Below, piece after piece: positions 1,040 to 37,930 of a stretch of 38,055 nucleotides of DNA. The translations under genes were made by a program, and so were the position numbers. Where the stretch lies: UHGV virus genome UHGV-0022456; one strand, 5' to 3'. The notes beneath the pieces are model-generated. The model did no database searches. It saw only the letters and a program-made list of their open reading frames with translations, and was not told the origin of the DNA. Numbering within the stretch: position 1 is the stretch's first letter; each line of letters begins with the position of its first letter. This DNA comes from a virus.

Positions 1040-1202
1040 GTTTGCAGTTTACACATCGGTAGCTGTCGGCGGGAAGAGTGGCCGACAAACAAAGCAAGAA
1101 ACACGCGAGCAGGTCATTGCTCGCAATAGTTTCCCTGGTCCAGACCAGAATCGTTACATTGATAAATTTTTAGCGGAGCAGAAGAAAAATGAAGGAGCAT
1201 AA
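1029..1202 (+). CDS. Small hypothetical protein (57 aa)
   Basis: ATG 1029 preceded by GAGGAG; overlaps previous stop and the methyltransferase start; not in ORF track. Confidence 0.35.
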   Translation: MAGEFAVYTSVAVGGKSGRQTKQETREQVIARNSFPGPDQNRYIDKFLAEQKKNEGA

Positions 1203-2022
1203 CAACAGGAAAAAGGCAGATTCATTGGCAGAGTTCATAACCTCAAAGTCACTAAGGAAATTAGTGGCTAGCAAGGTTCATGAATACATTGGAGACAGGC
1301 CGGTCACTGTATTCGATGGGGCCGTTGGTTCTGGTCAGCTTGAGGAGTTTATAAAATTAAAGCACTTAGTTGGCATTGATATACAACAGGAGTCAATTGA
1401 TGCGCTGACACATAACTTTGGAGGCAGGTGCACGGGGATTGTTGGTGATTTCTTTAATGTTGTGAATGGTGTTGATGGTTTTTTTGATTGCGTTGTAATG
1501 AACCCACCATTTTCACTAAAGTGCACTAAGTCGATAGATTCCATGCCTTACACCAAAAAAACCGGCGTTCTGGACGAGTGTTTCTATGTGCTGGCAAGTA
1601 TGAAAGCAAGACTTTCGTTCTTTATTTGCTTTCCTGGTGTCGGTTATCGAAGGACAGAACAAAAAATGAGGAATTATTTTGGCAATAATGTTGCTGAAAT
1701 AATAACGGTATCTTCAGCATTTGAAGATACATCAATTGATGTGCTTCTTGTGGTGATAGATAAAAATAAGAAGTCGCCGCAAGTGTCTGTTTCTTTGTAT
1801 TCATGCAAGGATGATGAATACAAGGTGCATCCGCATGAAGAGAATCTCGACATAACCAACTGGAACAAGGCAGTAATAGAAATCGAGCGCGAAAAAATAG
1901 ACATCATCTCCCTAACCAATGAGGTAAATGAGCTATCACGTAAAAATCGCAATGCACTTGATTCATTTGATGAACTAGTTAGATCAATGATGACTGACGA
2001 GCAGCTTAAGCAAATTAAGTAA
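1189..2022 (+). CDS. N6-adenine DNA methyltransferase (orphan)
   Basis: SAM-binding motif I-like VFDGAVGSGQL followed by catalytic motif IV VVMNPPFS (NPPF); visibly AT-richer than flanks; no restriction endonuclease candidate adjacent. Confidence 0.65.
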   Translation: MKEHNNRKKADSLAEFITSKSLRKLVASKVHEYIGDRPVTVFDGAVGSGQLEEFIKLKHLVGIDIQQESIDALTHNFGGRCTGIVGDFFNVVNGVDGFFDCVVMNPPFSLKCTKSIDSMPYTKKTGVLDECFYVLASMKARLSFFICFPGVGYRRTEQKMRNYFGNNVAEIITVSSAFEDTSIDVLLVVIDKNKKSPQVSVSLYSCKDDEYKVHPHEENLDITNWNKAVIEIEREKIDIISLTNEVNELSRKNRNALDSFDELVRSMMTDEQLKQIK

Positions 2023-3119: not shown

Positions 3120-3123
3120 AATA

Positions 3124-3148
3124 AGGCCCGTAATGGGCCTTTTCTTTT
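3124..3148 (+). terminator. Rho-independent terminator between convergent early genes and terL
   Basis: AGGCCC(3124-3129)-GTAAT-GGGCCT(3135-3140) followed by TTTTCTTTT; may also serve the minus-strand packaging operon. Confidence 0.6.
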
Positions 3149-4553
3149 ACCAGGCGGAAAGGTTGTAGCCGGTGTTGAGTTGAGGCGAGAATGCACAAAC
3201 AAGGGAGTCGGCAAGGTTGTGTGATGGTATTCCGCGCTTCTTGAGTGATTCCTTGCCCTCAACCTTAATCTTACCGTTGGAGTATTCCCGGTTTGGTGCG
3301 GATAGCTCTCCCTTAAGTTTATTCAGTACCTCAGGCGCAATACAGGATGAGTCAATGCTGATGATATTATCCATGTCCACCTCTTTTCCTTCCACGACCG
3401 CCTTGTAGGTATTATGGAACCGGTCGCGCAGATACCACCAGCCCATTGCCTTCATGTTAAGGAAGTGCTGCCCATTGGTGCGCCCTGGCATGTATTCGGA
3501 GTCTGGATTGCATGGTGATTCACTGGCGGTGAATTCAGAGAACGGTACAATTTGACCATGCTGCCCTTTGGACCTCATATCGGTTTCAATCTCGCGGAAT
3601 TTACCCTTAACACCAGCGCCGACGCCGATGTTGTCGTAAATAACGTGCGATATTCCATCCTGAATGGCCTCAGCATAAACACGCTCACCAACAGCAACCG
3701 GGTCGCGGTCCTTCCATTCATCAAGCTGATAGACAATCTGCCCGTCACGGTAGCACCTGGCGTTAAAGTCTTCGCCCTCATCCATCGGGTCAAGGCCGCA
3801 GAACCTGTTTCCGGTGCGTGTTATGCCCAGCTTAAGGTGTGCGTCGATTGCTGCCTCTATCCATGAAGGTTTGATGATTGAAAGCGCGGAGTTAGCGACC
3901 GGCATCCCCAGATAGACGTGCTGGTAAAGCTCGGGGTCGTCATTCTTCATTAGCTCCATATCGATACGCAACTCCTCCGGGAATCGCGGGTTAGCGTCGT
4001 AGTTTATGCAGCGCACGATGCAGTATGGCTTGCCCTTGATGGTATCAGGGTACTTCCGGTTAGTCACGAATCGCTGATAGGTGTCATCCAGTGGCGACTC
4101 TGGGTTAAAGCTAACCCATATCTCTGAGCCTTTTTTACGCAGCGTAGGGATGAGCAGCTTCCAGGAATCTTTTGTTACCTTCGCGGCCTCCTCCACCCAT
4201 GCAGCGTCGAACCCGGCGTACCCCTTCACCTTCTGCTGGTTGCGATGCAGGCCGTCAAATTTAATGATGCCCGTTCCGCGTTTTGCCCTTATTTCAGTTT
4301 TCAGGACGTCAACCATGTCATGCAGGTTTCGGCGCTCAATCTCTTCGATAAACTCCTGGTATACGGAGTCCTCGATAGATTTCATGATTTCACGGAAGCA
4401 GACAAGGCGCCACCCGTGCCAGATGACGTTATTGAGCAGGATGGTTATGAATGTGCGGGTCTTTGCAGAGCCACGCCCACCGTATGCAACCTTGAACCTG
4501 GCTGGCTGCAAAAAGTCACGGTAGGCGCGGAAGATTTCACAGGTTTCACTCAT
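3147..4553 (-). CDS. terL: Terminase large subunit (PBSX/Terminase_3-like)
   Basis: 468 aa; N-terminal P-loop KVAYGGRGSAKT; directly downstream of and overlapping the small-subunit gene. Confidence 0.85.
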   Translation of the reverse strand: MSETCEIFRAYRDFLQPARFKVAYGGRGSAKTRTFITILLNNVIWHGWRLVCFREIMKSIEDSVYQEFIEEIERRNLHDMVDVLKTEIRAKRGTGIIKFDGLHRNQQKVKGYAGFDAAWVEEAAKVTKDSWKLLIPTLRKKGSEIWVSFNPESPLDDTYQRFVTNRKYPDTIKGKPYCIVRCINYDANPRFPEELRIDMELMKNDDPELYQHVYLGMPVANSALSIIKPSWIEAAIDAHLKLGITRTGNRFCGLDPMDEGEDFNARCYRDGQIVYQLDEWKDRDPVAVGERVYAEAIQDGISHVIYDNIGVGAGVKGKFREIETDMRSKGQHGQIVPFSEFTASESPCNPDSEYMPGRTNGQHFLNMKAMGWWYLRDRFHNTYKAVVEGKEVDMDNIISIDSSCIAPEVLNKLKGELSAPNREYSNGKIKVEGKESLKKRGIPSHNLADSLVCAFSPQLNTGYNLSAW

Positions 4554-5151
4554 CAGCGATTTTATATACTGGCGCCTGAGGAGTCATTGAGCCATCCTCA
4601 GACACATGGTTAACGGTTTCCTTGTACCCACCCAGCATCTTGATGAGCATGTCCTGCGCCTTCTGCTGGTCGGCCATTTCAAACTTCGGCCCCATCTTCG
4701 TGAAGGTGATACCTTTGATGAGTCCGCGAATTTCTTCGGGAACCTCGTCAGAGCTCATCTTCACGACCGGAACAGTCATTTCGCCAATCACCTCACCGTC
4801 ATCGTTCACCATCGGGCGCGGCTCCCAACCGATGAACTGAGTCACGTCAGCGAATGCCTGCGCCTGAATCCTGGATGCAATTTCGTCCAGGCTCATGAGT
4901 TTTGACTTGGCAATGAGTCGGCGAGCCTCACGGACGTAGGGTCCGACTTTAGGGTGGGTTAACAATTTGCATCCGGCAACTACGGCAGACTTATATGCCA
5001 CTTCTTCGCCATAGGCATGGAGATATGCTCTAGTTGCGTTACCATTAGCAATATAATGATTAGCAAATGTTAAATGGTCTTTACTCAGTTGAGCCGCCAT
5101 TTCCTCAAGCTCAGGCGTGAAGAAAGGCAGGTTGTCGTCTGCCTCTGCCAT
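4546..5151 (-). CDS. terS: Terminase small subunit
   Basis: 201 aa; N-terminal FANHYIANGNATRAYLHAYG resembles Terminase_2-type small subunits; 8-nt overlap with terL. Confidence 0.75.
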   Translation of the reverse strand: MAEADDNLPFFTPELEEMAAQLSKDHLTFANHYIANGNATRAYLHAYGEEVAYKSAVVAGCKLLTHPKVGPYVREARRLIAKSKLMSLDEIASRIQAQAFADVTQFIGWEPRPMVNDDGEVIGEMTVPVVKMSSDEVPEEIRGLIKGITFTKMGPKFEMADQQKAQDMLIKMLGGYKETVNHVSEDGSMTPQAPVYKIADE

Positions 5152-5152
5152 A

Positions 5153-5353
5153 TCAATCCTCCTCCACCAGCACCAGCTTAAACCGTGAGCGAGCGACTTT
5201 CTCGCCGTAGTTATGGATGGCGCGTGGGTTTGGTGTGTTTAAACTCTTACTGCGGCCGGGAGTAATGAATACATCCTCGCCATTAGCCGCAGCGTCCATT
5301 GCTTCTTTCATGCCGTTACGGATAAAGTCACGCGGGGTAAATTGTTTCATCAT
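5153..5353 (-). CDS. Hypothetical protein (66 aa) in packaging operon
   Basis: ORF ending 1 nt before terS start. Confidence 0.45.
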   Translation of the reverse strand: MMKQFTPRDFIRNGMKEAMDAAANGEDVFITPGRSKSLNTPNPRAIHNYGEKVARSRFKLVLVEED

Positions 5354-5401
5354 TAATCCTTTCCGTTGTTTCCCCTATTATCGCCCCGTAATGAAACAGT
5401 G

Positions 5402-5902
5402 TCAACCTCGGTAAGATTTGATCTCACTGCGCACCCAGTTGCGTGGGATGGAGAATGTGCCCATTTTCTTTCCGGACTCGGACGCCTCTTTGCACATCAG
5501 GCGACCGTCTGAAGGGCGATACTCTGCGTTATTCACCACATCCCGCAGCCAGAAATCGCCGTTCACTTTATGGGTGAATGTACGGACATGCCCATCCACT
5601 TCAACCTCCACTGTCATCTGCACGTTGCGCAGGATGTTCACCACCGTTGCCCAGCTCTTGAACCCGTACTTTTTCATCAGGTCGGTGACGGGTATCAGCT
5701 CCGGGTCAATTTCATGGGCTTTGGCAATAAATGGGGCCATGTCGATTACTGGTGACGCGTCGACTGGTGAGGCATCAGAAGTCTGTGATTTCTTTCCAGA
5801 CTTAAGCGCCTTCACCTGCAGTTTAAGCTCTTTCACTTCGGCGATGAGTTTTTCAACCTGTGCGGCAAGATTATTGTAGTGCGGGGATGGTTTGCGTTTC
5901 AT
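5402..5902 (-). CDS. Hypothetical protein (166 aa), first gene of packaging operon
   Basis: ATG 5902 preceded by AGGAG SD; N-terminal coiled coil; Ser/Asp/Pro-rich linker. Confidence 0.5.
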   Translation of the reverse strand: MKRKPSPHYNNLAAQVEKLIAEVKELKLQVKALKSGKKSQTSDASPVDASPVIDMAPFIAKAHEIDPELIPVTDLMKKYGFKSWATVVNILRNVQMTVEVEVDGHVRTFTHKVNGDFWLRDVVNNAEYRPSDGRLMCKEASESGKKMGTFSIPRNWVRSEIKSYRG

Positions 5903-5935
5903 TTTGGCTTCTCCTGTTGTGTCAAACTTAAGGAG

Positions 5936-5964
5936 AATTTAAAGGTGGAAATGGGGTTTGTCAA
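5936..5964 (-). promoter_or_regulatory. Sigma70-like promoter for the minus-strand packaging operon
   Basis: Minus strand -35 TTGACA (plus 5959-5964), 17-nt spacer, -10 TAAATT (plus 5936-5941), then AGGAG SD and ATG 5902. Confidence 0.55.
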
Positions 5965-6126
5965 TATGCCTATGATTGATTCTCACTCCCTGTAGGATGA
6001 TAGGGGTGGATGGGTGACTACCGTTGACACTCCCGCACCCCCTTCACCTTAACAGGGTGTGAGTTTATCATATTATTTTTATAAAGTCAATAGATGAAAG
6101 GCAAAAACAAAAGATTAAAGTCGTGG

Positions 6127-6155
6127 TTGACATAATCACACCAGGCGGGTAGATT
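6127..6155 (+). promoter_or_regulatory. Sigma70-like early promoter within GGTTGACAT motif
   Basis: -35 TTGACA 6127-6132, 17-nt spacer, -10 TAGATT 6150-6155, AGGAG SD, ATG 6181. Confidence 0.55.
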
Positions 6156-6180
6156 TGTTGGAAACAACAGGAGAAACGAA

Positions 6181-6429
6181 ATGACCGAATTAACCAACGA
6201 ATCAATGACAGAGTACGAAGAAATGCAGCAGCGTCTTATGGATGAGTTCATTAACAACATCTCTCCGTGGATTGACTGGGTTGGCATGTCTGGATTTGAA
6301 GAAAAAATGGCACGATCGGCAGTTCGCAGCCTCATCAGCCTTTCGTATTATGAAGGCACGATGAATGGCATTCGTGTGATGCAGGAGAACATGAAGGAGT
6401 TCCATGATGACGCAGCGCGTGACATTTGA
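6181..6429 (+). CDS. Hypothetical small acidic protein (82 aa), first early gene
   Basis: About 16 Asp/Glu versus 7 basic residues; AGGAG SD. Confidence 0.5.
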   Translation: MTELTNESMTEYEEMQQRLMDEFINNISPWIDWVGMSGFEEKMARSAVRSLISLSYYEGTMNGIRVMQENMKEFHDDAARDI

Positions 6430-6440
6430 GGTGTGAAGCT

Positions 6441-6623
6441 ATGAGGCTTTATCAGTGCTATCGCTGCGGAGAATCTAAAGACTGGTATCGCTTCAATCCC
6501 GGGCAGAAGTATTGGGCAAGGCAGTGCATCAGATGCGAAATGACGCCAGCCGGGATGATGCCAGTCCCGCAAGAAAGCGAACACAGGTTCAGGTGTAAAA
6601 AGATTATGAGGGCGTGCAAATGA
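6441..6623 (+). CDS. Small zinc-ribbon protein
   Basis: Track ORF 6426-6623 trimmed to ATG 6441 with GAGGTG SD; CxxC (CYRCG) and CxxC (CIRCE) pairs. Confidence 0.4.
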   Translation: MRLYQCYRCGESKDWYRFNPGQKYWARQCIRCEMTPAGMMPVPQESEHRFRCKKIMRACK

Positions 6624-6892
6624 AAAGCAGCAGAGAGCAGTTTGAAGAGTGGTATTCAAAGGCTTCCGGTCTTTGCGATATGGACCTTGAAAGCGAGTTC
6701 AACGTTGACGATAACGGAGAATATATTTACTCGGGCGCTAGAGATGCGTGGGAAGCATGGCAGGCCAGCCGTGCGGCGATTGAGATTGAATTGCCATCAA
6801 GGGAAGATCCGGCAAATTTCTTCTGTGAAGTTTATGACTGTGAGCTGGTTCATGAATCGCTGGCGAATTGCGGACTAAAGGTAAAAGCATGA
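6620..6892 (+). CDS. Hypothetical acidic protein
   Basis: ATG 6620 overlapping previous stop (ATGA); acidic composition. Confidence 0.5.
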   Translation: MKSSREQFEEWYSKASGLCDMDLESEFNVDDNGEYIYSGARDAWEAWQASRAAIEIELPSREDPANFFCEVYDCELVHESLANCGLKVKA

Positions 6893-7125
6893 ACATCTTC
6901 AGCATCATCAACATGGCGCAGGCGGCTAATCCGAAAGCCGACGTCACTATCCGAAGCGGTGGGCATGACCAAATACTAATCATCTGGCATTGGGAGGGTC
7001 ATTATCTGAACCGTCGCTATTGCAAGGCTCGCATGACCGGGCATCACTACGGCGAATATGAGGCATGGCGAATTGCATTCCATGCAGCCGCTCAGATTAT
7101 GGGCGTAGTGGAGTGCGCGAAATGA
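6889..7125 (+). CDS. Hypothetical protein
   Basis: ATG 6889 overlapping previous stop (ATGA); in frame with track ORF 6868-7125. Confidence 0.45.
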   Translation: MNIFSIINMAQAANPKADVTIRSGGHDQILIIWHWEGHYLNRRYCKARMTGHHYGEYEAWRIAFHAAAQIMGVVECAK

Positions 7126-7778
7126 TTATCTGGTCACTATTTGACGGTTCAGGAATTATGGGACAGCCGTGGGCGGAAGCCGGTCACACGGTTTATTGCT
7201 TCAACTACGACGGTGCTGACCACGGTGTATACGAAATGCGCGTGGAGCACGAAAACATCGTATATGTGAATAAGTTCATCACACCTGATTCCTGTTTCTC
7301 CGACTTCCCGGAACCGGATATTATTTTCGCATTCCCTAGTTGCACAGACTTAGCTGGATGCGGTGAGAAACACCAAAGGCAACAACCTGCAGTAAATACC
7401 GCTGTTGCCACCGCTAAGGTTGCTGAACGGTTAGGCAACGTGTACGGGGTTCCGTGGATGGTAGAAAACCCGGTAGGTAAGCTGTCCACGTTGTGGCGTA
7501 AGCCTGACCACTATTTCCACCCATTCGAATATGGTGGATATATGTCTGGAGAAGAAAATACATTTCACCCACGCATGCCTGCGCGTGACGCATACACGAA
7601 GAAAACTTGCCTGTGGACAGGAAACGGTTTTGTCATGCCTGAGCCTAAGCCGGTTCCGCACATCGGTAAGTTTTGGGGATGGGCTTATCTTGGTGGGAAG
7701 TCAGAAAAAACCAAGCAGTTACGAAGCCTGACCCCGCGAGGATTTGCACGCGCAGTATTTGAGGCCAACAAAGGTTGA
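7122..7778 (+). CDS. DNA (cytosine-5)-methyltransferase-like protein (short, orphan)
   Basis: Track ORF 7065-7778 trimmed to ATG 7122 (ATGA overlap); motif I-like LFDGSG, PC-like AFPSCTDLAG, ENV-like MVENPVG; no obvious target-recognition domain. Confidence 0.5.
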   Translation: MIIWSLFDGSGIMGQPWAEAGHTVYCFNYDGADHGVYEMRVEHENIVYVNKFITPDSCFSDFPEPDIIFAFPSCTDLAGCGEKHQRQQPAVNTAVATAKVAERLGNVYGVPWMVENPVGKLSTLWRKPDHYFHPFEYGGYMSGEENTFHPRMPARDAYTKKTCLWTGNGFVMPEPKPVPHIGKFWGWAYLGGKSEKTKQLRSLTPRGFARAVFEANKG

Positions 7779-7833
7779 CCCATCGATAACGGGGCGGGAT
7801 GATAGCCGCCCCATTCACCTGGAATAAATCATC

Positions 7834-9438
7834 ATGGCAGAAGAACAAATAAACAGCCTCGTTAACCTGGCGGCTGAGCAATCACTTATCGGCGGCGTGC
7901 TGCTACTCGGATTCGATGCGGATTTTCGCGAGCGTACGGACTACGTTTTCCAGAATGTACGGGAATCTGATTTCTATTCTTCCGCACATAAAATCATCTG
8001 GCGTGAAATCTGTGCGATGACCGACAAGGCGAAGTCGGTGGATGTAATTACCCTGTTCGACATTATCGAAAGCAAGGGGATGGGTGAAAAGATAGGCGGG
8101 TTCGCATACCTGTCAGAGATAGCAAAAGGCACACCAAGCGCCGCAAACATCAACGCCTATGCTGATATTGTGGTCGAGCGCTCAAATGCGCGTGAGGTTC
8201 TGCGCCGGATGAATGCCGCCCGTGAAATCATCACCAAAGAGGATGGTCGGTCGCTGGCTATCCGCCTGGCAGAAGCGAGTGACATTACCGCAGGCATCGA
8301 CCAGATATCAGCGGGCCGTATGCTGTTTAATCCTGTCGATGTGATCACCTCGCAGCTGGAGACCATTGATGAAGACTATTCCCTTATCGAGAAGATTTTC
8401 AATGAATGTATTAAGCACAAAGATATTACTCTGCTTACTGGCGCTGGCGGTACGGGTAAATCCTGGCTCACCATCAAACTTGGCATTTCTGTCGCGCTCG
8501 GGCGTCCCGCACTTGGCGGGAAATACAATTTCCTCACTCCCGTGGAGCAGGGGGTAGTTGTCTTCCTGATTGGCGAGGATAGCGTTGATGACTACCGGCA
8601 TCGCCTGGATAAGCTGATTAAGGCGGCGGGCATGACCCGTGATGAAAAGGCGCAGATTCTTTCGTCAATCCTGTTCGTTCCTTTGCGTGATAAGGATATT
8701 CGCCTGATTAAGCGTGAGCGTGGGGGCGACCTGGAGCAGACCGGGGTTATCCGCAATCTTGCCGCATCACTGAAGGCGTGTAACTGCCGCCTCGCCATTC
8801 TGGACCCGATGAACAAATTTGCCAGCGGTGAGGAGAACAGTAACAACGAGGCAAACGTATTTATCAACGCTGTACGGCGCGTGGTTGATTTATCCGGCTC
8901 GGCGGTGCTGATGGTCCACCACTCATCAAAAAACGACCCAGGAGGCTCGCGCGGGGCTTCTGCGCTGGTGGATGGGGCGCGTTGTCATCTAGCACTGGCA
9001 ACCATGTCGCAGCTTAAAGGCGAGAAGGCAGAACAAGGGGATGATGATGTTATCCGCCTGACCATGCCGAAGCATAACAACTTTAAAGGATGGGATGGCC
9101 CGGTGTGGCTCAAGCGAAGTGACGCTGGCGACATGCTGACGATTGACCCACCAGAGATGATTGGTACAGGAGCTATCGCCAAGCGCTTTCATGTGGATAC
9201 AACGCGCGTTAAATCGCTCATTATTGAATGCATCCGCAGCAACTCCAGACCGACAAGCACCAGCGAGTTTATTAACGCCTTCATCGAAGGGCCAGGCAAA
9301 GAGCTGTGCCCTAACTATGGTAAGGCAAAGGACATCATCGGCGAAATGCTTAACGACGGCATTCTGGAAGAAGGCACGATGTTCAATCGCAAGGTGTTGC
9401 TGGTGGCTGAGCGCGAGAGTGATAATTTCACCTGGTGA
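7834..9438 (+). CDS. Replication protein with DnaB-like N-terminal domain and RecA/RepA-like P-loop ATPase
   Basis: 534 aa; N-terminal region resembles DnaB helicase N-domain; Walker A LLTGAGGTGKS. Confidence 0.65.
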   Translation: MAEEQINSLVNLAAEQSLIGGVLLLGFDADFRERTDYVFQNVRESDFYSSAHKIIWREICAMTDKAKSVDVITLFDIIESKGMGEKIGGFAYLSEIAKGTPSAANINAYADIVVERSNAREVLRRMNAAREIITKEDGRSLAIRLAEASDITAGIDQISAGRMLFNPVDVITSQLETIDEDYSLIEKIFNECIKHKDITLLTGAGGTGKSWLTIKLGISVALGRPALGGKYNFLTPVEQGVVVFLIGEDSVDDYRHRLDKLIKAAGMTRDEKAQILSSILFVPLRDKDIRLIKRERGGDLEQTGVIRNLAASLKACNCRLAILDPMNKFASGEENSNNEANVFINAVRRVVDLSGSAVLMVHHSSKNDPGGSRGASALVDGARCHLALATMSQLKGEKAEQGDDDVIRLTMPKHNNFKGWDGPVWLKRSDAGDMLTIDPPEMIGTGAIAKRFHVDTTRVKSLIIECIRSNSRPTSTSEFINAFIEGPGKELCPNYGKAKDIIGEMLNDGILEEGTMFNRKVLLVAERESDNFTW

Positions 9439-9502: not shown

Positions 9503-11251
9503 ATGAAACAGCCACGCCCATATCAACAGGAAGCCATTAACTCCACTATCGAGGAGATTAAAAAATATGCCAAGCAGGGGAAATCAGCCCACCTGATTAT
9601 TGATGCAGGGCCTGGAGCGGGGAAGACATTGCTTATGGCTTTTTTGGCTAAGCATGTATTTGAGAGAGGTGGCCGTGTTGTGCAACTGGCTCGCCAGCCG
9701 ATACTGGCAAAGCAGAACTATGACGAGATGTACGAGTGCGGCATACCAGCCGCGCTTTACGCAGCAAAGTTCAACCGCCGTCAGGTTGCGCAGGTTACTG
9801 TTGCAACGGAGGGCACAATAGCCAATTCTCTGCATGACATGAATAAGCCGGTGGATCTTCTACTTTTGGATGAGTGTCACACTCTTAGTCCGGATGATGA
9901 AGATACGCAGATGAACACTATCATTCGACACCTGGATGATGTGACTACAAAAGCCGGCAGAAAGATGCACGTTGTCGGCCTCACGGGAAGCCCGTTCCGT
10001 GGGGTTACTCCATTAACCAGTTTCGATTTCTGGCACGATACGGTATTCAATATTGGCACTGATAAGCTGACGGAACTGGGTTACTTGTCAGTTCCTGTTT
10101 TCGGGTTCGCCGATGCCGATGATGATGCCCTGGACTTCTCCGGCGTAAACACTCGCAGCGGCTCATGGGAGTTCAGCGAGAAGGAACTCGACGAAATCGC
10201 CATGTCCGACGCAGGCAAGAAAAAACTTGTCCGCATTCTGATGCAGGTCATTGAAAAGACCAAAGACCGAAATCAGCGGATAGTCTTTGCATCTACCAAG
10301 CGACACGCCAGGGAGATTCGCCGCATCCTGATTGCCCTGGGCATCGACAAAAGCAAGATTGGCCTTGTCACTGACGATTCCAGCGAGGCAGAGAAAGACC
10401 GCGTTATCAAGCTGTCGAAGGAAGGCAAATTAGACTGGCTGATTAACGTGTCGGTGCTGACCACTGGCTTTAACTCGCCCCTGATTGACGTGGTGGTGTA
10501 CCTGCGCCCGATTGGTTCACTGGTGTTGCTGATTCAGTCAATGGGGCGAGGTGCTCGCCTGCTGGAAGACTGGATGAAAGAGGCTGGATTCCACAAAGAG
10601 AACTATCTGGTGCTGGACTATGCCGGGGTATTCGACCGGCTGGGGCATTTGCTGGATGACCCGACTACCGGCGAGGCGCTTGCTCAGCGTGATAAGTCTC
10701 GCGGAGAAGATAAACCATGCCCGCGCTGCCATGAGATGAACAGCAAGGCGGCTCGTCGCTGCCGGGCAAGGGATGAGTCTGAGCCTGATAAACGCTGTTC
10801 ATTTTTTTGGACGTCACAGATTTGCCCCGACTGCCAGACTGAAAATGACATTGCAGCTACTGAATGCCGTAATCCGTCATGCAGGCGAGAACTAAGGGAC
10901 TCAAATAAGGCTCTGCTGCATCATCCGTATTCAGATGAGGAAATGGTTGGCGTTAAGAAGATGGACGTGCTGAATACGAAAGGAGGTGCGCTAATGGTGC
11001 GCTTCACCCTGGAAGGCGACGAGCGACAACCGTACCTGATATTCCCGATGGGTGGCGATTTATCGAGGCGCATTCTGAAAAAGGAATTTGTCGATGTGTA
11101 CGTACAACCTGGCTGGCGCGGAAGGGTGGCGTCCATGAAAACAGCCGAGCAGATTGTGAAGATGGCGGGCGCATTCATGACGCCGAAGGCTATCGCATAC
11201 CGCATCAACGGCAATAACAAATATGTAGTTGGTCGCAGGAAATTCTCATGA
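9503..11251 (+). CDS. SF2 DEAH-box DNA helicase with C-terminal zinc-ribbon region
   Basis: Track ORF 9473-11251 trimmed to ATG 9503; Walker A GPGAGKT; box II LLLLDECH; C-terminal CPRCH...CRARD and CPDCQ...CRNPSC. Confidence 0.75.
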   Translation: MKQPRPYQQEAINSTIEEIKKYAKQGKSAHLIIDAGPGAGKTLLMAFLAKHVFERGGRVVQLARQPILAKQNYDEMYECGIPAALYAAKFNRRQVAQVTVATEGTIANSLHDMNKPVDLLLLDECHTLSPDDEDTQMNTIIRHLDDVTTKAGRKMHVVGLTGSPFRGVTPLTSFDFWHDTVFNIGTDKLTELGYLSVPVFGFADADDDALDFSGVNTRSGSWEFSEKELDEIAMSDAGKKKLVRILMQVIEKTKDRNQRIVFASTKRHAREIRRILIALGIDKSKIGLVTDDSSEAEKDRVIKLSKEGKLDWLINVSVLTTGFNSPLIDVVVYLRPIGSLVLLIQSMGRGARLLEDWMKEAGFHKENYLVLDYAGVFDRLGHLLDDPTTGEALAQRDKSRGEDKPCPRCHEMNSKAARRCRARDESEPDKRCSFFWTSQICPDCQTENDIAATECRNPSCRRELRDSNKALLHHPYSDEEMVGVKKMDVLNTKGGALMVRFTLEGDERQPYLIFPMGGDLSRRILKKEFVDVYVQPGWRGRVASMKTAEQIVKMAGAFMTPKAIAYRINGNNKYVVGRRKFS

Positions 11252-11736
11252 TTACTCAAGAAGAGCTAAAGAAGGCATTGAATTACGATCCATTAACTGG
11301 AATTTTCACCAGGAATATGAGGGCATCAAATCAAGTTCCTGGACAAGTTGTTGGCTCTAAAGATAGCGGTGGTTACTTGGTTGCAATGATTAACGGGAAA
11401 AGGTACTCACTACACAGGATGGCCTGGCTTTATTTTTATGGAAGGATACCAGTTGGAGATATAGACCACATAAACGGCGTTAGGGACGATAACCGAATTG
11501 TAAACCTCAGGGAATGCAGCCGTAGCAAGAATTGCATGAACAAAAAGATAAATAAAAACAACATGTCAGGAGTTAAAGGGGTTGGCTGGCATAAGCAAAG
11601 CGGCAAGTGGAGAGCAAGGATAATGATAGACGGAGAGTCTATTCATATCGGTGAATTTAAATCAATAGGTGATGCCGAGTCAGCAATATCAGAAGCAAGA
11701 GATAAAATACATAAGCAATTCGCGAGGCATTCATGA
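11248..11736 (+). CDS. HNH endonuclease with AP2-like DNA-binding domain (paralog 1)
   Basis: HRMAWLYFYG...DHINGVRDDNRIVNLR HNH core followed by SGVKGVGWHKQSGKWRARI AP2-like segment; AT-rich; ATGA overlap with helicase stop. Confidence 0.7.
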   Translation: MITQEELKKALNYDPLTGIFTRNMRASNQVPGQVVGSKDSGGYLVAMINGKRYSLHRMAWLYFYGRIPVGDIDHINGVRDDNRIVNLRECSRSKNCMNKKINKNNMSGVKGVGWHKQSGKWRARIMIDGESIHIGEFKSIGDAESAISEARDKIHKQFARHS

Positions 11737-12451: not shown

Positions 12452-12958
12452 ATGTTTCACCCAACAGGTCTAAGTCACGATGAAATATGTAGTCTTTTTG
12501 ACTACGACCCAGAGACAGGAGAAATAAAGAGAAAGTTCAAGGTTAGAGGCTCAAGATCTGATGGTAAAACAGGGGGAATGGGCGGACACAAGTACATAAG
12601 GATAGGATTCAGAGGTTTTAGGATTTACGCGCACAGGCTTGCATGGTTCATCTATCACGGTCATCTGGACCGGGACATTGAAATAGACCACCTGAATGGA
12701 AATGGATATGACAACAGAATTTGCAACTTAAGGCTTGCCACTAGCCAGCAAAATTCATTCAACATAAAAAAACATGCAGATAATCAATCTGGTTATAAGT
12801 GGGTTTACTTTGACAAAAGAAGGCAGAAGTTTTCTTCAAGGGTTTCAGTTAACGGAAGGTCAATGTTTCTTGGTTACTACATAAACCCAGAGGATGCACA
12901 TATGGCGGCGCTAAAGGTAGCCATGGCAGTGCACAAAGAATTTTTCAGGAGCAAATAG
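12452..12958 (+). CDS. HNH endonuclease with AP2-like domain (paralog 2)
   Basis: HRLAWFIYHG...DHLNGNGYDNRICNLR then SGYKWVYFDKRRQKFSSRV; AT-rich; GAGG SD. Confidence 0.7.
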   Translation: MFHPTGLSHDEICSLFDYDPETGEIKRKFKVRGSRSDGKTGGMGGHKYIRIGFRGFRIYAHRLAWFIYHGHLDRDIEIDHLNGNGYDNRICNLRLATSQQNSFNIKKHADNQSGYKWVYFDKRRQKFSSRVSVNGRSMFLGYYINPEDAHMAALKVAMAVHKEFFRSK

Positions 12959-12959
12959 C

Positions 12960-13901
12960 ATGAACTACTTACCAGCACTAAAACCAGCACATGATTTGAT
13001 TCTTTCACAAGAAAGTTCATTCATGTCGATACTTTCTGATGAAAAAATTAATTTTCATAAGGAAATGAATTTTGCAATGCAGCAGCTTTCAGGAAATGAC
13101 TTCTTGCTTAAAGTGGCAATGCAAAACCCACAATCACTAAAGGATGCAATATTAAACCTTGCAGCATTCGGTCTAAGTCTTAATCCTGCACTTAAGCATG
13201 CTTATCTGGTTCCAAGAAAAGGTAAGATATGCCTTGATGTTGGTTATCTTGGCATGGAATACATAGCCATAGACTCAGGAAGCGTGCTATGGGTTCAAAG
13301 CAAGATTGTTTATTCAAATGATACATATGAGTCAATGGGGATAGACAAGGCTCCAGAGCACAGATATAGCGCGTTCGGAAGTAGAGGCTCAATTGTAGGG
13401 GCTTATTGCGTTGCAAAGGTTCACGATGGCTCATTCCTTACCGAAGAGATGAATATAGAGGAAATATATAAAATAAGGTCTCGTTCTGAATCGTTCTCAA
13501 AGGGAAGCATGTCTCCTTGGAAAACTGACGAAGGCGAGATGATAAAGAAGACAGTTATAAAGAGAGCAAGCAAAGGGTGGCCGAAGTGCGACCGACTGCA
13601 AAGTGTTATTAGTTTCGCCAATGAGAATGAGGGCATTGACTTCCAGCGTGAGCGAGCACCAGTGCGCGAGAAGGCTATCAGCCCGGCAACGGAAGAGCAG
13701 GTTAAGACAATCCGTGAAGGCCTGGAGTTTATCAGCCGACCGGAAGAGGCCTTCCTGAAATACTTCTCTGGCAGCATAGCCAAGCGCGTTATTGAGTCCA
13801 TTGAGGAGCTGACCGAGGAGGAGGCAATCAAGGCTATCAGCACCATCCAGAGCATCATGGATAAGCAGGCAGAGAAGCAATCAAATAGAGAGGTATTCTG
13901 A
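12960..13901 (+). CDS. recT: RecT-family single-strand annealing protein
   Basis: 313 aa; pairs with downstream YqaJ-type exonuclease; 5' two-thirds AT-rich, 3' third GC-normal. Confidence 0.65.
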   Translation: MNYLPALKPAHDLILSQESSFMSILSDEKINFHKEMNFAMQQLSGNDFLLKVAMQNPQSLKDAILNLAAFGLSLNPALKHAYLVPRKGKICLDVGYLGMEYIAIDSGSVLWVQSKIVYSNDTYESMGIDKAPEHRYSAFGSRGSIVGAYCVAKVHDGSFLTEEMNIEEIYKIRSRSESFSKGSMSPWKTDEGEMIKKTVIKRASKGWPKCDRLQSVISFANENEGIDFQRERAPVREKAISPATEEQVKTIREGLEFISRPEEAFLKYFSGSIAKRVIESIEELTEEEAIKAISTIQSIMDKQAEKQSNREVF

Positions 13902-14434
13902 TGGGAAGGAGACCTTCTGACATAGATGATGACATGGTTTCTGAGCTTAGAGACAGATTAAATTATGACCCTAATACAGGAATTCTTACATGGAAGAAAG
14001 TCAGAAAAAGAAAACTGATAGGTTCCGAGGCTGGGTTCATGATGAATTCTGGATACATGGCCCTCAAGATTGGGACAAGAAGGATTCAATGCCATAGGGT
14101 TGCCTATGCAATAGTTAACGGAGCAATAGGTGATGGGGTAGAAATCGACCACATTAATGGTGTTAAGCATGATAATAGGATTTTAAATCTTCGTGCATGC
14201 TCTGCATCTCAAAACAGAATGAACGTAGCACTGATGAAAAATAACACATCAGGTGTTAAAGGCGTAAGTTTTTGCAGATCGAGCGGTAAATACAGGGCAG
14301 AAATAATGGTTAATTATAAATCTTACTATCTAGGAGAGTTTTCTAGCATAGATGAGGCATCAAAAGCTGTCTCATCAGTTAGAGCCAATATTCATAAAGA
14401 ATACTCTAATCATGGGGAATTCAAAAAATGCTGA
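13901..14434 (+). CDS. HNH endonuclease with AP2-like domain (paralog 3)
   Basis: HRVAYAIVNG...DHINGVKHDNRILNLR then SGVKGVSFCRSSGKYRAEI; AT-rich; overlaps recT stop by 1 nt and exonuclease start by 7 nt. Confidence 0.7.
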   Translation: MGRRPSDIDDDMVSELRDRLNYDPNTGILTWKKVRKRKLIGSEAGFMMNSGYMALKIGTRRIQCHRVAYAIVNGAIGDGVEIDHINGVKHDNRILNLRACSASQNRMNVALMKNNTSGVKGVSFCRSSGKYRAEIMVNYKSYYLGEFSSIDEASKAVSSVRANIHKEYSNHGEFKKC

Positions 14435-36524: not shown

Positions 36525-37245
36525 AGAATTGCCGAAGCGTGGTGGATGGCCTGATGGTGCGCTAAATGCCACGCAAGATAAAGATGGCCAGGTGTGCTTT
36601 TCTGCCGGTGCAGTCCCTGAATTTGGCTACGTTGCCTGGGAGGGCGGCGACTGGCTCGGGAATGAGTTTTACGCCACTAGGGCAAGCGACTACGCATATG
36701 CCATCATCACCTGCGAACAATACGAATCAGCACTGGCAGCCAGCAAAGCCGTTGTTGGCCATGACGGCTGGATTCAATGGCATGGCGGTGAGTGCCCTGT
36801 TGATAGTGACGCAATTGTTGAGGTCAAATTCCGAAATCAGAACCGGGACAAAATCAATAGTGACAGAGCCGGAGATTTTTACTGGCCGCATGATGGCCTT
36901 GGATATGACATCATCGCCTACCGGCTGCAACAGCAGACGAAATCAGAACAGGCTTGCGATGACGCTGCGGAAGCTGATGACGAAGCCGACCTGAATGAGT
37001 GCATTGGTCATGATTTTGACGTAGTTAACCATCCATCTCACTACACACAAGGCAGTATAGAGTGTATCGACGCTATTAAAGCTGCGCTAGGTGAAGAGCA
37101 ATATGAGGGGTACTTACGCGGCGCTTGCATTAAGTACCTGTGGCGATATAAAATGAAATCTGGAGTTGAGTCATTGAAAAAATCAGAGTGGTATCTGAAA
37201 AGGTTAATCGAACTTAATGAAGAGATTGAATCCAGAAACAAATAG
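36499..37245 (+). CDS. DUF3310-like phage protein
   Basis: 248 aa; C-terminal HYTQGSIECIDAIKAALGEEQYEGYLRGACIKYLWRYKMKSGVESLKKSEWYLKRLIE matches the remembered DUF3310 signature; GAGGAAG SD. Confidence 0.5.
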   Translation: MKLIDLLVKELPKRGGWPDGALNATQDKDGQVCFSAGAVPEFGYVAWEGGDWLGNEFYATRASDYAYAIITCEQYESALAASKAVVGHDGWIQWHGGECPVDSDAIVEVKFRNQNRDKINSDRAGDFYWPHDGLGYDIIAYRLQQQTKSEQACDDAAEADDEADLNECIGHDFDVVNHPSHYTQGSIECIDAIKAALGEEQYEGYLRGACIKYLWRYKMKSGVESLKKSEWYLKRLIELNEEIESRNK

Positions 37246-37930
37246 ACCTTACGTTTTGGGCGAGTACAACCCGGACACGGGGTTGTACTTCAGAGCATAT
37301 GTAAAAACCATCGTCAAATCTGATGGGTACTTTAAAGAAGCGTGGTTATCCCATGATGCTCTCGAAAGATTCATAGCTCGACAAAGGTTATCTGCCAGAA
37401 AATGTCAAATCAGGCGTAATGAGGAGAATCGTAAATGGATTAACGACTATAAAATATCAAAAGGGTGTAGCGTTTGTGGATATAAATCTCACGCTGCTGC
37501 ATTAGATTTTGACCATTTGGAAAGATCAGATAAAAAATTCACGATTGGGAGACGTTTGGGTGGATTGTCGAAAGAGAGGCTGCTTGCTGAAATTGAGAAA
37601 TGCAGAATACTCTGCGCCAATTGTCACAGGGTGAAAACTTTCGAGAATAATGAGCACGGAAGAATAAGAAATGATAATTTACTGGAGAGTGCAATAATCG
37701 AGAGTCGAATAGAAAAATCAAGACAAATAAATAAGTTCAGAAGTAAATTCTACACGACGAAAACGAAAAGTAGACTGAAAAATGTATACCTTTCAAAATC
37801 GGGATTGTACTTCGTGAGAAAACAAATCGGACGGGTAAGAACGTGCGCAGGGTGCTTTGACAACATATTCGATGCGGCATGCTGTCTGATTGGGGAGCAT
37901 CAACTGAAACCGTTATGCGATGGTGAGTGA
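37217..37930 (+). CDS. HNH endonuclease (distinct family from the HNH-AP2 paralogs)
   Basis: CSVCGYKSHAAALDFDHLERSD...CRILCANCHRVKTFEN; AT-rich; 5' end overlaps DUF3310-like gene by 29 nt. Confidence 0.65.
   Translation: MKRLNPETNRPYVLGEYNPDTGLYFRAYVKTIVKSDGYFKEAWLSHDALERFIARQRLSARKCQIRRNEENRKWINDYKISKGCSVCGYKSHAAALDFDHLERSDKKFTIGRRLGGLSKERLLAEIEKCRILCANCHRVKTFENNEHGRIRNDNLLESAIIESRIEKSRQINKFRSKFYTTKTKSRLKNVYLSKSGLYFVRKQIGRVRTCAGCFDNIFDAACCLIGEHQLKPLCDGE

Follow-up and report, generated by a model that had tools for sequence, protein, structure and literature searches.

The 38,055-nucleotide viral genome UHGV-0022456 (hereafter the window, meaning the whole stretch of DNA analysed) carries a gene whose product is best read as an active, self-contained DNA (cytosine-5) methyltransferase. 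It belongs to a compact 'Dcm-like' phage family, would depend on S-adenosylmethionine (SAM) and would probably bring an anti-restriction benefit; we put the probability of this reading at about 0.78. The analysis establishes the open reading frame (ORF), its family membership, its fold, its conserved catalytic residues, purifying selection and the orphan status of the gene. A first-pass annotation, made from the DNA sequence alone, had called a 218-residue ORF at 7122–7778, and both coordinates and strand are confirmed. It had also recognized LFDGSG, AFPSC and ENP in the order expected of C5 methyltransferases; these motifs fall at residues 6–11, 70–74 and 115–117. The gene and its conserved elements are listed below, with conservation counts taken from an alignment of 89 family sequences that are 33–80% identical to the query.

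7122–7778, plus strand: compact orphan DNA (cytosine-5) methyltransferase gene, 218 residues (ORF, PHROG 757, AlphaFold model, fold matches and homology)
7137–7154, plus strand: motif I, L6-F-D-G-S-G11, predicted SAM-binding loop (matches motif I in alignments with DNMT2, M.HaeIII and E. coli Dcm)
7329–7343, plus strand: motif IV, A70-F-P-S-C74, with Cys74 as catalytic nucleophile and Ser73 for the canonical Pro (alignment)
7464–7472, plus strand: motif VI, E115-N-P (E115 and P117 invariant, N116 in 86/89)
7593–7622, plus strand: conserved strand Y158-T-K-K-T-C-L-W-T-G167, at the place of motif VIII (QxRxR in canonical enzymes)
7722–7769, plus strand: C-terminal conserved helix R201-S-L-T-P-R-G-F-A-R-A-V-F-E-A-N216 (alignment and model)

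An abundant family of small phage methyltransferases

The protein matches PHROG 757, a family labelled DNA methyltransferase, with E=2.4e-82 (residues 1–217 on profile positions 15–219 of 247). By tblastn it is present in 1,499 of 50,697 phage records, with carriers that include Drexlerviridae, Webervirus, Kagunavirus, Vequintavirinae-like phages, Krischvirus, Jedunavirus and phages of Campylobacter and Vibrio; many of these records are already labelled 'DNA methyltransferase' or 'Dcm-like C5 cytosine methyltransferase'. A word-indexed search returned 3,973 proteins, several of them from enterobacterial genomes and carrying the NCBI name 'DNA cytosine methyltransferase', and an exhaustive search of representatives at 50% identity yielded 1,026 clusters at E≤1e-3. 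As judged from sequence comparison, the profile match, the phage records and the clusters place the motif set of this ORF far beyond chance.

The window protein is thus an unremarkable representative of a very widespread family of phage cytosine methyltransferases of unusually small size, a family already widely annotated, named in GenBank and, through one functional study, partly characterized. All aligned members are 200–260 residues long, so the short length of the single-domain window protein is a property of the family and not the result of truncation.

Predicted fold and conserved motifs

The AlphaFold model has a predicted local distance difference test score (pLDDT) of 91.9 and a predicted template modelling score of 0.90. 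In a Foldseek search of the PDB, the top 50 matches are all DNMT3B, DNMT3A or M.HaeIII, and M.HhaI is also among the fold matches. The model has the class I SAM-methyltransferase fold of the C5 type. Structure prediction had been proposed at first pass as the check on the methyltransferase assignment, and it returns a C5 DNA methyltransferase fold rather than a non-methyltransferase one.

Eight residues (C74, G81, E115, P117, P134, Y158, W165 and P173) are invariant in the alignment, and twelve more (L6, W17, G21, P72, N116, F132, K160, T162, R201, P205, G207 and A211) are listed as at least 90% conserved. In motif I, L6 is kept in 83/89 sequences, D8 in 73/89 and G11 in 70/89. Cys74 is present in 89/89 and aligns with the cysteine of the Pro-Cys dipeptide in DNMT2, M.HaeIII and Dcm. 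In the strand around YTKKT, K160 and T162 are each found in 88/89 members alongside the invariant Y158 and W165; its position in the motif order, its secondary structure and the published superposition of a model of the phage K42 enzyme (described below) on DNMT3A suggest that Y158-T-K-K-T may be the equivalent of motif VIII. Towards the C terminus, R201 (88/89), P205 (82/89), G207 (87/89) and A211 (84/89) lie in or between helices that the model predicts at residues 195–201 and 206–216, and this conserved helical region appears to resemble motifs IX/X.

Sequence models alone barely identify the protein as a C5 methyltransferase, but conservation and structure do so clearly. A sequence search of solved structures in the PDB with the single protein gave nothing significant, and the family profile gave only sub-threshold alignments over motifs I–IV to DNMT2 and M.HaeIII.

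Evidence for activity

Functional evidence comes from a preprint on retron Ec86 (10.1101/2023.08.16.553469), the published form of which is cited by later papers. Its phage K42 is a 95%-identical relative of the BASEL phage KarlJaspers (Bas06), and the 711-bp KarlJaspers Dcm-like gene encodes a product with 52% full-length identity to the window protein. In that study, four of four K42 mutants that escaped Ec86 had mutations disrupting or potentially disrupting the 711-bp 'dcm' gene, and K42 Dcm expressed alone was toxic only in retron-carrying cells (10.1101/2023.08.16.553469). Mass spectrometry after liquid chromatography (LC-MS) showed that K42 Dcm raised 5-methylcytosine (5mC) in multicopy single-stranded DNA (msDNA), and a C82A/E128A/K175A/K176A mutant was inert (10.1101/2023.08.16.553469). 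In a pairwise alignment, these four K42/KarlJaspers residues correspond to C74, E115, K160 and K161 of the window protein. By analogy with this homologue, for which 5mC formation was demonstrated by LC-MS, the window protein would be expected to form 5mC as well. The fold, the invariant Cys and Glu and the 5mC-making homologue all favour the minimal DNA methyltransferase that the first-pass annotation had listed among its options.

On this basis we infer the activity, the anti-restriction role and the specificity of the window protein. Motif I would bind SAM, the target cytosine would be flipped out of the DNA, Cys74 would attack C6, Glu115 would protonate N3 and the methyl group would go to C5, as in the standard C5 mechanism. 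The basic pair K160/K161, the segment 166–200 and the loop after Cys74 might together stand in for the large target-recognition domain and recognize a short DNA motif. With no cognate nuclease, the most likely benefit would be the pre-emptive methylation of replicating phage DNA against restriction enzymes sensitive to C5 methylation, and a likely cost would be recognition by methylation-sensing defences such as retron Ec86/Eco1. An anti-restriction purpose is the conventional rationale; it is plausible and fits the mobility of the gene. The presence of the gene would thus predict that the phage is sensitive to defences of the Ec86/Eco1 type and that its DNA partly resists some restriction enzymes.

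Several points weigh against this reading. The Pfam model DNA_methylase (PF00145) scores 11.6 bits against a cutoff of 22, below its gathering threshold, and detects only 1 of the 89 family members at E≤0.01; an NCBIfam search with the window protein gave no match. The canonical Pro of the Pro-Cys dipeptide is replaced by Ser73, and a literature search found no activity data for the window protein or for any member of the PSC/PDC type. The likely DNA-contacting segments differ between the K42 type and the window type. For the K42 enzyme, CCWGG specificity was taken over as an assumption from work on E. coli Dcm and not mapped (10.1101/2023.08.16.553469), and in the BASEL study restriction resistance showed no simple relation to the presence of these methyltransferase genes. 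Since PF00145 misses the PHROG 757 family, domain-based surveys of phage methyltransferases would undercount it.

Genomic context and mobility

Two features precede the gene.

6049–6155, plus strand: promoter-like sites ahead of the early/replication block (10/12 consensus matches at 6049–6076 and at 6127–6155)
7110–7113, plus strand: Shine-Dalgarno-like GGAG, 8 nucleotides before the ATG (read from the sequence)

The gene lies in a rightward early/replication block, after three small ORFs and before a DnaB-N/AAA_25 helicase gene (7834–9438); genes for a DEAD-box helicase, HNH, VRR-NUC, RecT and YqaJ proteins follow further downstream. Promoter-like sites, counted as consensus matches only, number 9 in 5800–8000 against 3.0 expected, and the gene is probably transcribed with the early/replication genes. 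Its ATG overlaps the stop codon of an upstream 85-residue ORF (6868–7125) as ATGA, which suggests translational coupling. From an alternative in-frame ATG at 7065 the reading would run through this upstream ORF, and all homologues begin at MIIWSLFDGSG; 7122 is therefore the correct start. The 55-nucleotide gap between the methyltransferase and helicase genes contains a GC-rich 7-bp hairpin (GGGGCGG/CCGCCCC, 8-nucleotide loop) at 7791–7812, 3' of the stop codon; it was rejected as a candidate, having a folding energy no better than that of shuffled sequences (z=-1.7) and no T-run.

Among phages, the one close relative is Escherichia phage BUCT618 (38,270 bp), which is colinear with the window at about 81–98% nucleotide identity in shared blocks. 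A megablast search of complete E. coli genomes gave no match, so that the phage cannot be counted among the common prophages of E. coli. The GenBank coding sequence 5007–5654 of BUCT618 (OM735461.1), annotated as 'putative DNA cytosine C5 methyltransferase', has its start placed 12 codons too late and thereby loses motif I; translation from 4971 (4971–5654) gives MIIWSLFDGSGLM..., 227 residues, and the start then overlaps the upstream gene through ATGA, as it does in the window.

The flanking ORFs scanned contain no match to a restriction nuclease, to Vsr or to an EcoRII-type nuclease, and two upstream ORFs match no family. The neighbours of the gene differ in every backbone examined, and its earlier description as an orphan methyltransferase stands. 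In a Jedunavirus, an 82%-identical gene stands isolated within the structural module, encoded on the opposite strand, and the homologues at 80–82% identity include one in an Enc34-like metagenomic phage, where the gene lies between those for DNA polymerase A and an SNF2 helicase. The methyltransferase gene thus behaves as a mobile orphan accessory gene.

These surroundings bear on the alternative that survives best, namely that the enzyme is an active C5 DNA methyltransferase whose main role is something other than anti-restriction: a mark for replication, packaging or expression, or a perturbation of host DNA or of a host sensor. In its favour, the gene stands in a replication module beside helicases, both in the window and in other backbones; the genome shows no depletion of CCWGG, a sequence that E. 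coli hosts themselves often methylate. The moron-like placement of the Jedunavirus gene argues against a fixed, replication-tied role. The gene also moves between unrelated backbones and its alleles are exchanged between sister phages, which is the behaviour expected of an accessory gene in an arms race. We consider a main role other than anti-restriction unlikely, and an anti-restriction benefit remains the favoured reading.

A serine in place of the motif IV proline

In profile alignments, the family's F-P-P-C falls on the canonical (G/P)-(F/P)-P-C of motif IV as it occurs in DNMT2 (SPPCQ), M.HaeIII (GPPCQ) and E. coli Dcm (GFPCQ), and the canonical Pro is therefore Ser73 in the window protein. 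That PSC stands where a Pro-Cys dipeptide is expected had been noticed at first pass, and the profile alignments agree. Position 73 is Pro in 65 of the 89 diverse members and S, D, E or V in the remainder. Of 126 relatives sharing at least 60% identity with the window protein, 114 have Ser or Asp there (PSC/PDC), which makes this residue choice a clade character. A large clade including the window protein thus dispenses with an 'invariant' proline of motif IV. Mutants of M.EcoRII with this Pro changed to Ala or Ser reportedly kept partial activity; our literature search on Pro-to-Ser changes in the Pro-Cys motif yielded no usable data.

Selection was assessed within the PSC clade, by comparing the window gene with two relatives of the same type, one from the Klebsiella Jedunavirus and one from an unrelated metagenomic phage. 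The proportion of synonymous differences is 0.80–0.90, which is saturated, and that of nonsynonymous differences is 0.12–0.14; the protein is thus under strong purifying selection. A ratio of nonsynonymous to synonymous rates (dN/dS) of 0.13 against BUCT618 was set aside, as dS is saturated owing to the different allele in the central segment.

A catalytically dead or crippled derivative, retained for DNA binding or as a decoy after loss of the Pro, would account for Ser73 and for the sub-threshold Pfam score. However, Cys74, Glu115, motif I and K160 are all kept, C74 and E115 without exception in the alignment, and PSC/PDC is the rule in a large clade under strong purifying selection. The selection within this clade makes an inactive relic unlikely, and the 'inactive derivative' among the options of the first-pass annotation is improbable on these grounds.

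Substrate and self-sufficiency

Equally improbable is an enzyme of the same fold with another substrate or chemistry, which would act on RNA or tRNA to form m5C as DNMT2-like proteins do, transfer a non-methyl group, or make 5mC as a precursor of hypermodification. In structural comparison, DNA methyltransferases outscore DNMT2 (13.6 to 10.1), and the K42 homologue yields 5mC in DNA. Genes for hypermodification (TET/5mYOX or glycosyltransferase) were not found in the 16 window ORFs scanned or in the BUCT618 annotation, which speaks against the 'another chemistry' that had earlier been listed as an option.

The least probable alternative, a split methyltransferase whose target recognition is supplied by a neighbouring small protein, could draw on the very short length of the protein and on the overlap of its start codon with the stop of the 85-residue ORF, which has no assigned function, but a search for a partner among the neighbouring small ORFs of the window, Jedunavirus, KarlJaspers and AugustePiccard found them unrelated and none conserved. 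By analogy with K42 Dcm, which was sufficient when expressed alone, the window methyltransferase probably needs no partner.

Putative recognition segment, allele exchange and target sequence

Two segments of the gene bear on how the DNA is read.

7617–7721, plus strand: short variable segment at the place of the target-recognition domain, residues 166–200 (alignment and model)
7227–7720, plus strand: central segment (about residues 36–200), a different allele from that of BUCT618 (nucleotide comparison)

Only 35 residues lie between W165 and R201 (family range 28–53), in accord with the earlier remark that the protein is too short for a normal target-recognition domain. Conservation is low over residues 170–194 (0.43), and pLDDT dips in the variable segment to 76 (block 181–190) and 80 (block 191–200).

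A six-way alignment separates two allele types. The window, Jedunavirus and metagenomic phage proteins share PSC, a shorter loop after the Cys and a near-identical segment MPE(P/K)KPVPHIGKFWGWAYLGGKS; the BUCT618, AugustePiccard and KarlJaspers proteins share PPC and different loops. The BUCT618 protein, with its PPC, is closer to the AugustePiccard type (73% identity) than to the window protein (59%). At the nucleotide level, 7227–7720 is only 37–63% identical to BUCT618 (about 5077–5597), and the flanks, the first 105 nucleotides and the last 55 nucleotides of the gene are 82–97% identical. This pattern indicates that the DNA-contacting core was probably exchanged by recombination inside conserved gene ends.

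Because the allele types differ in these loops and in the variable segment, the target motif of the window enzyme may differ from that of the K42 enzyme. The K42 study probed CCWGG only by mutating the CCTGG of the msDNA stem (10.1101/2023.08.16.553469), and our literature search for a mapped methylation motif in the PHROG 757 family found nothing usable. The genome contains 99 CCWGG sites, with observed/expected ratios (O/E) of 1.38 by composition and 0.78 by a Markov model; CCWGG, CCGG and GCGC are not avoided, and such site statistics do not discriminate specificity. CCWGG is a candidate target only, and a doubtful one. Tentatively, the PSC/PDC sub-type might differ in specificity from the K42 type and read a motif of perhaps 2–4 bp, with the exchange of the central 500 nucleotides acting as a cassette for specificity or defence sensing. 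If this holds, these proteins would be among the smallest self-contained C5 DNA methyltransferases that read sequence, and would offer a natural case of modular specificity exchange. With the family abundant and named, there is little to gain on the identity of the protein; of more interest are its target sequence and the way in which enzymes of 200–260 residues read DNA without a normal recognition domain.

Other features of the genome

A second methyltransferase gene is encoded upstream.

1189–2022, plus strand: N6-adenine-type DNA methyltransferase gene, 277 residues (Pfam N6_Mtase E=1.4e-7; 31.6 bits, cutoff 20.4)

Its product also matches PHROG 6380 (E=4.7e-53). The first-pass annotation had paired the C5 gene with an N6-methyltransferase, and this companion is indeed present and above the Pfam cutoff. 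The gene lies within a segment, 1193–2040, that has no counterpart in BUCT618 by megablast; BUCT618 instead encodes a 620-residue 'site-specific DNA-methyltransferase' (36396–38258) that has no tblastn match in the window. With different C5 core alleles and different N6-methyltransferase cassettes in the two sister phages, the comparison shows that methyltransferase content is a fast-changing part of these related genomes.

GATC is strongly depleted in the window, with 35 sites against about 149 expected by composition and 180 by a Markov model (O/E 0.24 and 0.19), which suggests selection exerted by systems that cut at GATC, and an N6 enzyme that may be something other than a Dam-type GATC methylase. 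GGWCC is also low (24 against 72 by composition), as are GGNCC and CTAG; CCWGG, GCGC and GCWGC are not depleted.

Four ORFs for HNH endonucleases (Pfam HNH_3 or PHROG HNH families), at 11248–11736, 12452–12958, 13901–14434 and 37217–37930, are interspersed among the replication and recombination genes. Megablast finds no BUCT618 match for the segments that hold them, and they therefore look like insertions of homing endonucleases. The large-terminase region 3120–4606 (ORF 3147–4553, 468 residues) likewise lacks a megablast match in BUCT618, where the annotated large terminase has 789 residues, another mosaic difference between the two phages.

Comparison with known enzymes

The closest characterized enzyme, K42/KarlJaspers Dcm, belongs to the same family and is likewise a single-domain protein (236 against 218 residues) encoded by an orphan gene in the early/replication region. 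It differs from the window protein in having PPC, in a post-Cys loop that is 5 residues longer and in the sequences of residues 141–155 and 170–190, which probably touch the DNA.

The E. coli enzyme Dcm and M.EcoRII share aligned motifs I, IV and VI with the window protein, the same chemistry is expected of them, and the phage genes are named after Dcm. Unlike the window protein, however, Dcm has 472 residues; hhalign covers 125 columns (Dcm residues 88–232, motifs I–VI) with E=0.07 and finds no similarity in the recognition domain. CCWGG specificity can thus not be inferred by homology, and 'Dcm-like' is a name that says nothing about specificity.

E. coli MG1655 is dcm-positive. It was the host in the Ec86 study, where control msDNA carried little 5mC (10.1101/2023.08.16.553469). 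The K42 phage enzyme is therefore not a simple duplicate of the host Dcm.

Among enzymes of known structure, the catalytic domains of DNMT3A and DNMT3B are only 12–19% identical to the window protein; they are domains of about 280 residues in large multidomain proteins and form oligomers with DNMT3L, whereas the window protein shows no sign of CpG specificity or oligomerization. M.HhaI and M.HaeIII, at about 325–330 residues, carry a small, separate recognition domain and have QxRxR as motif VIII, in contrast to the 35-residue segment and the YTKKT strand of the window enzyme.
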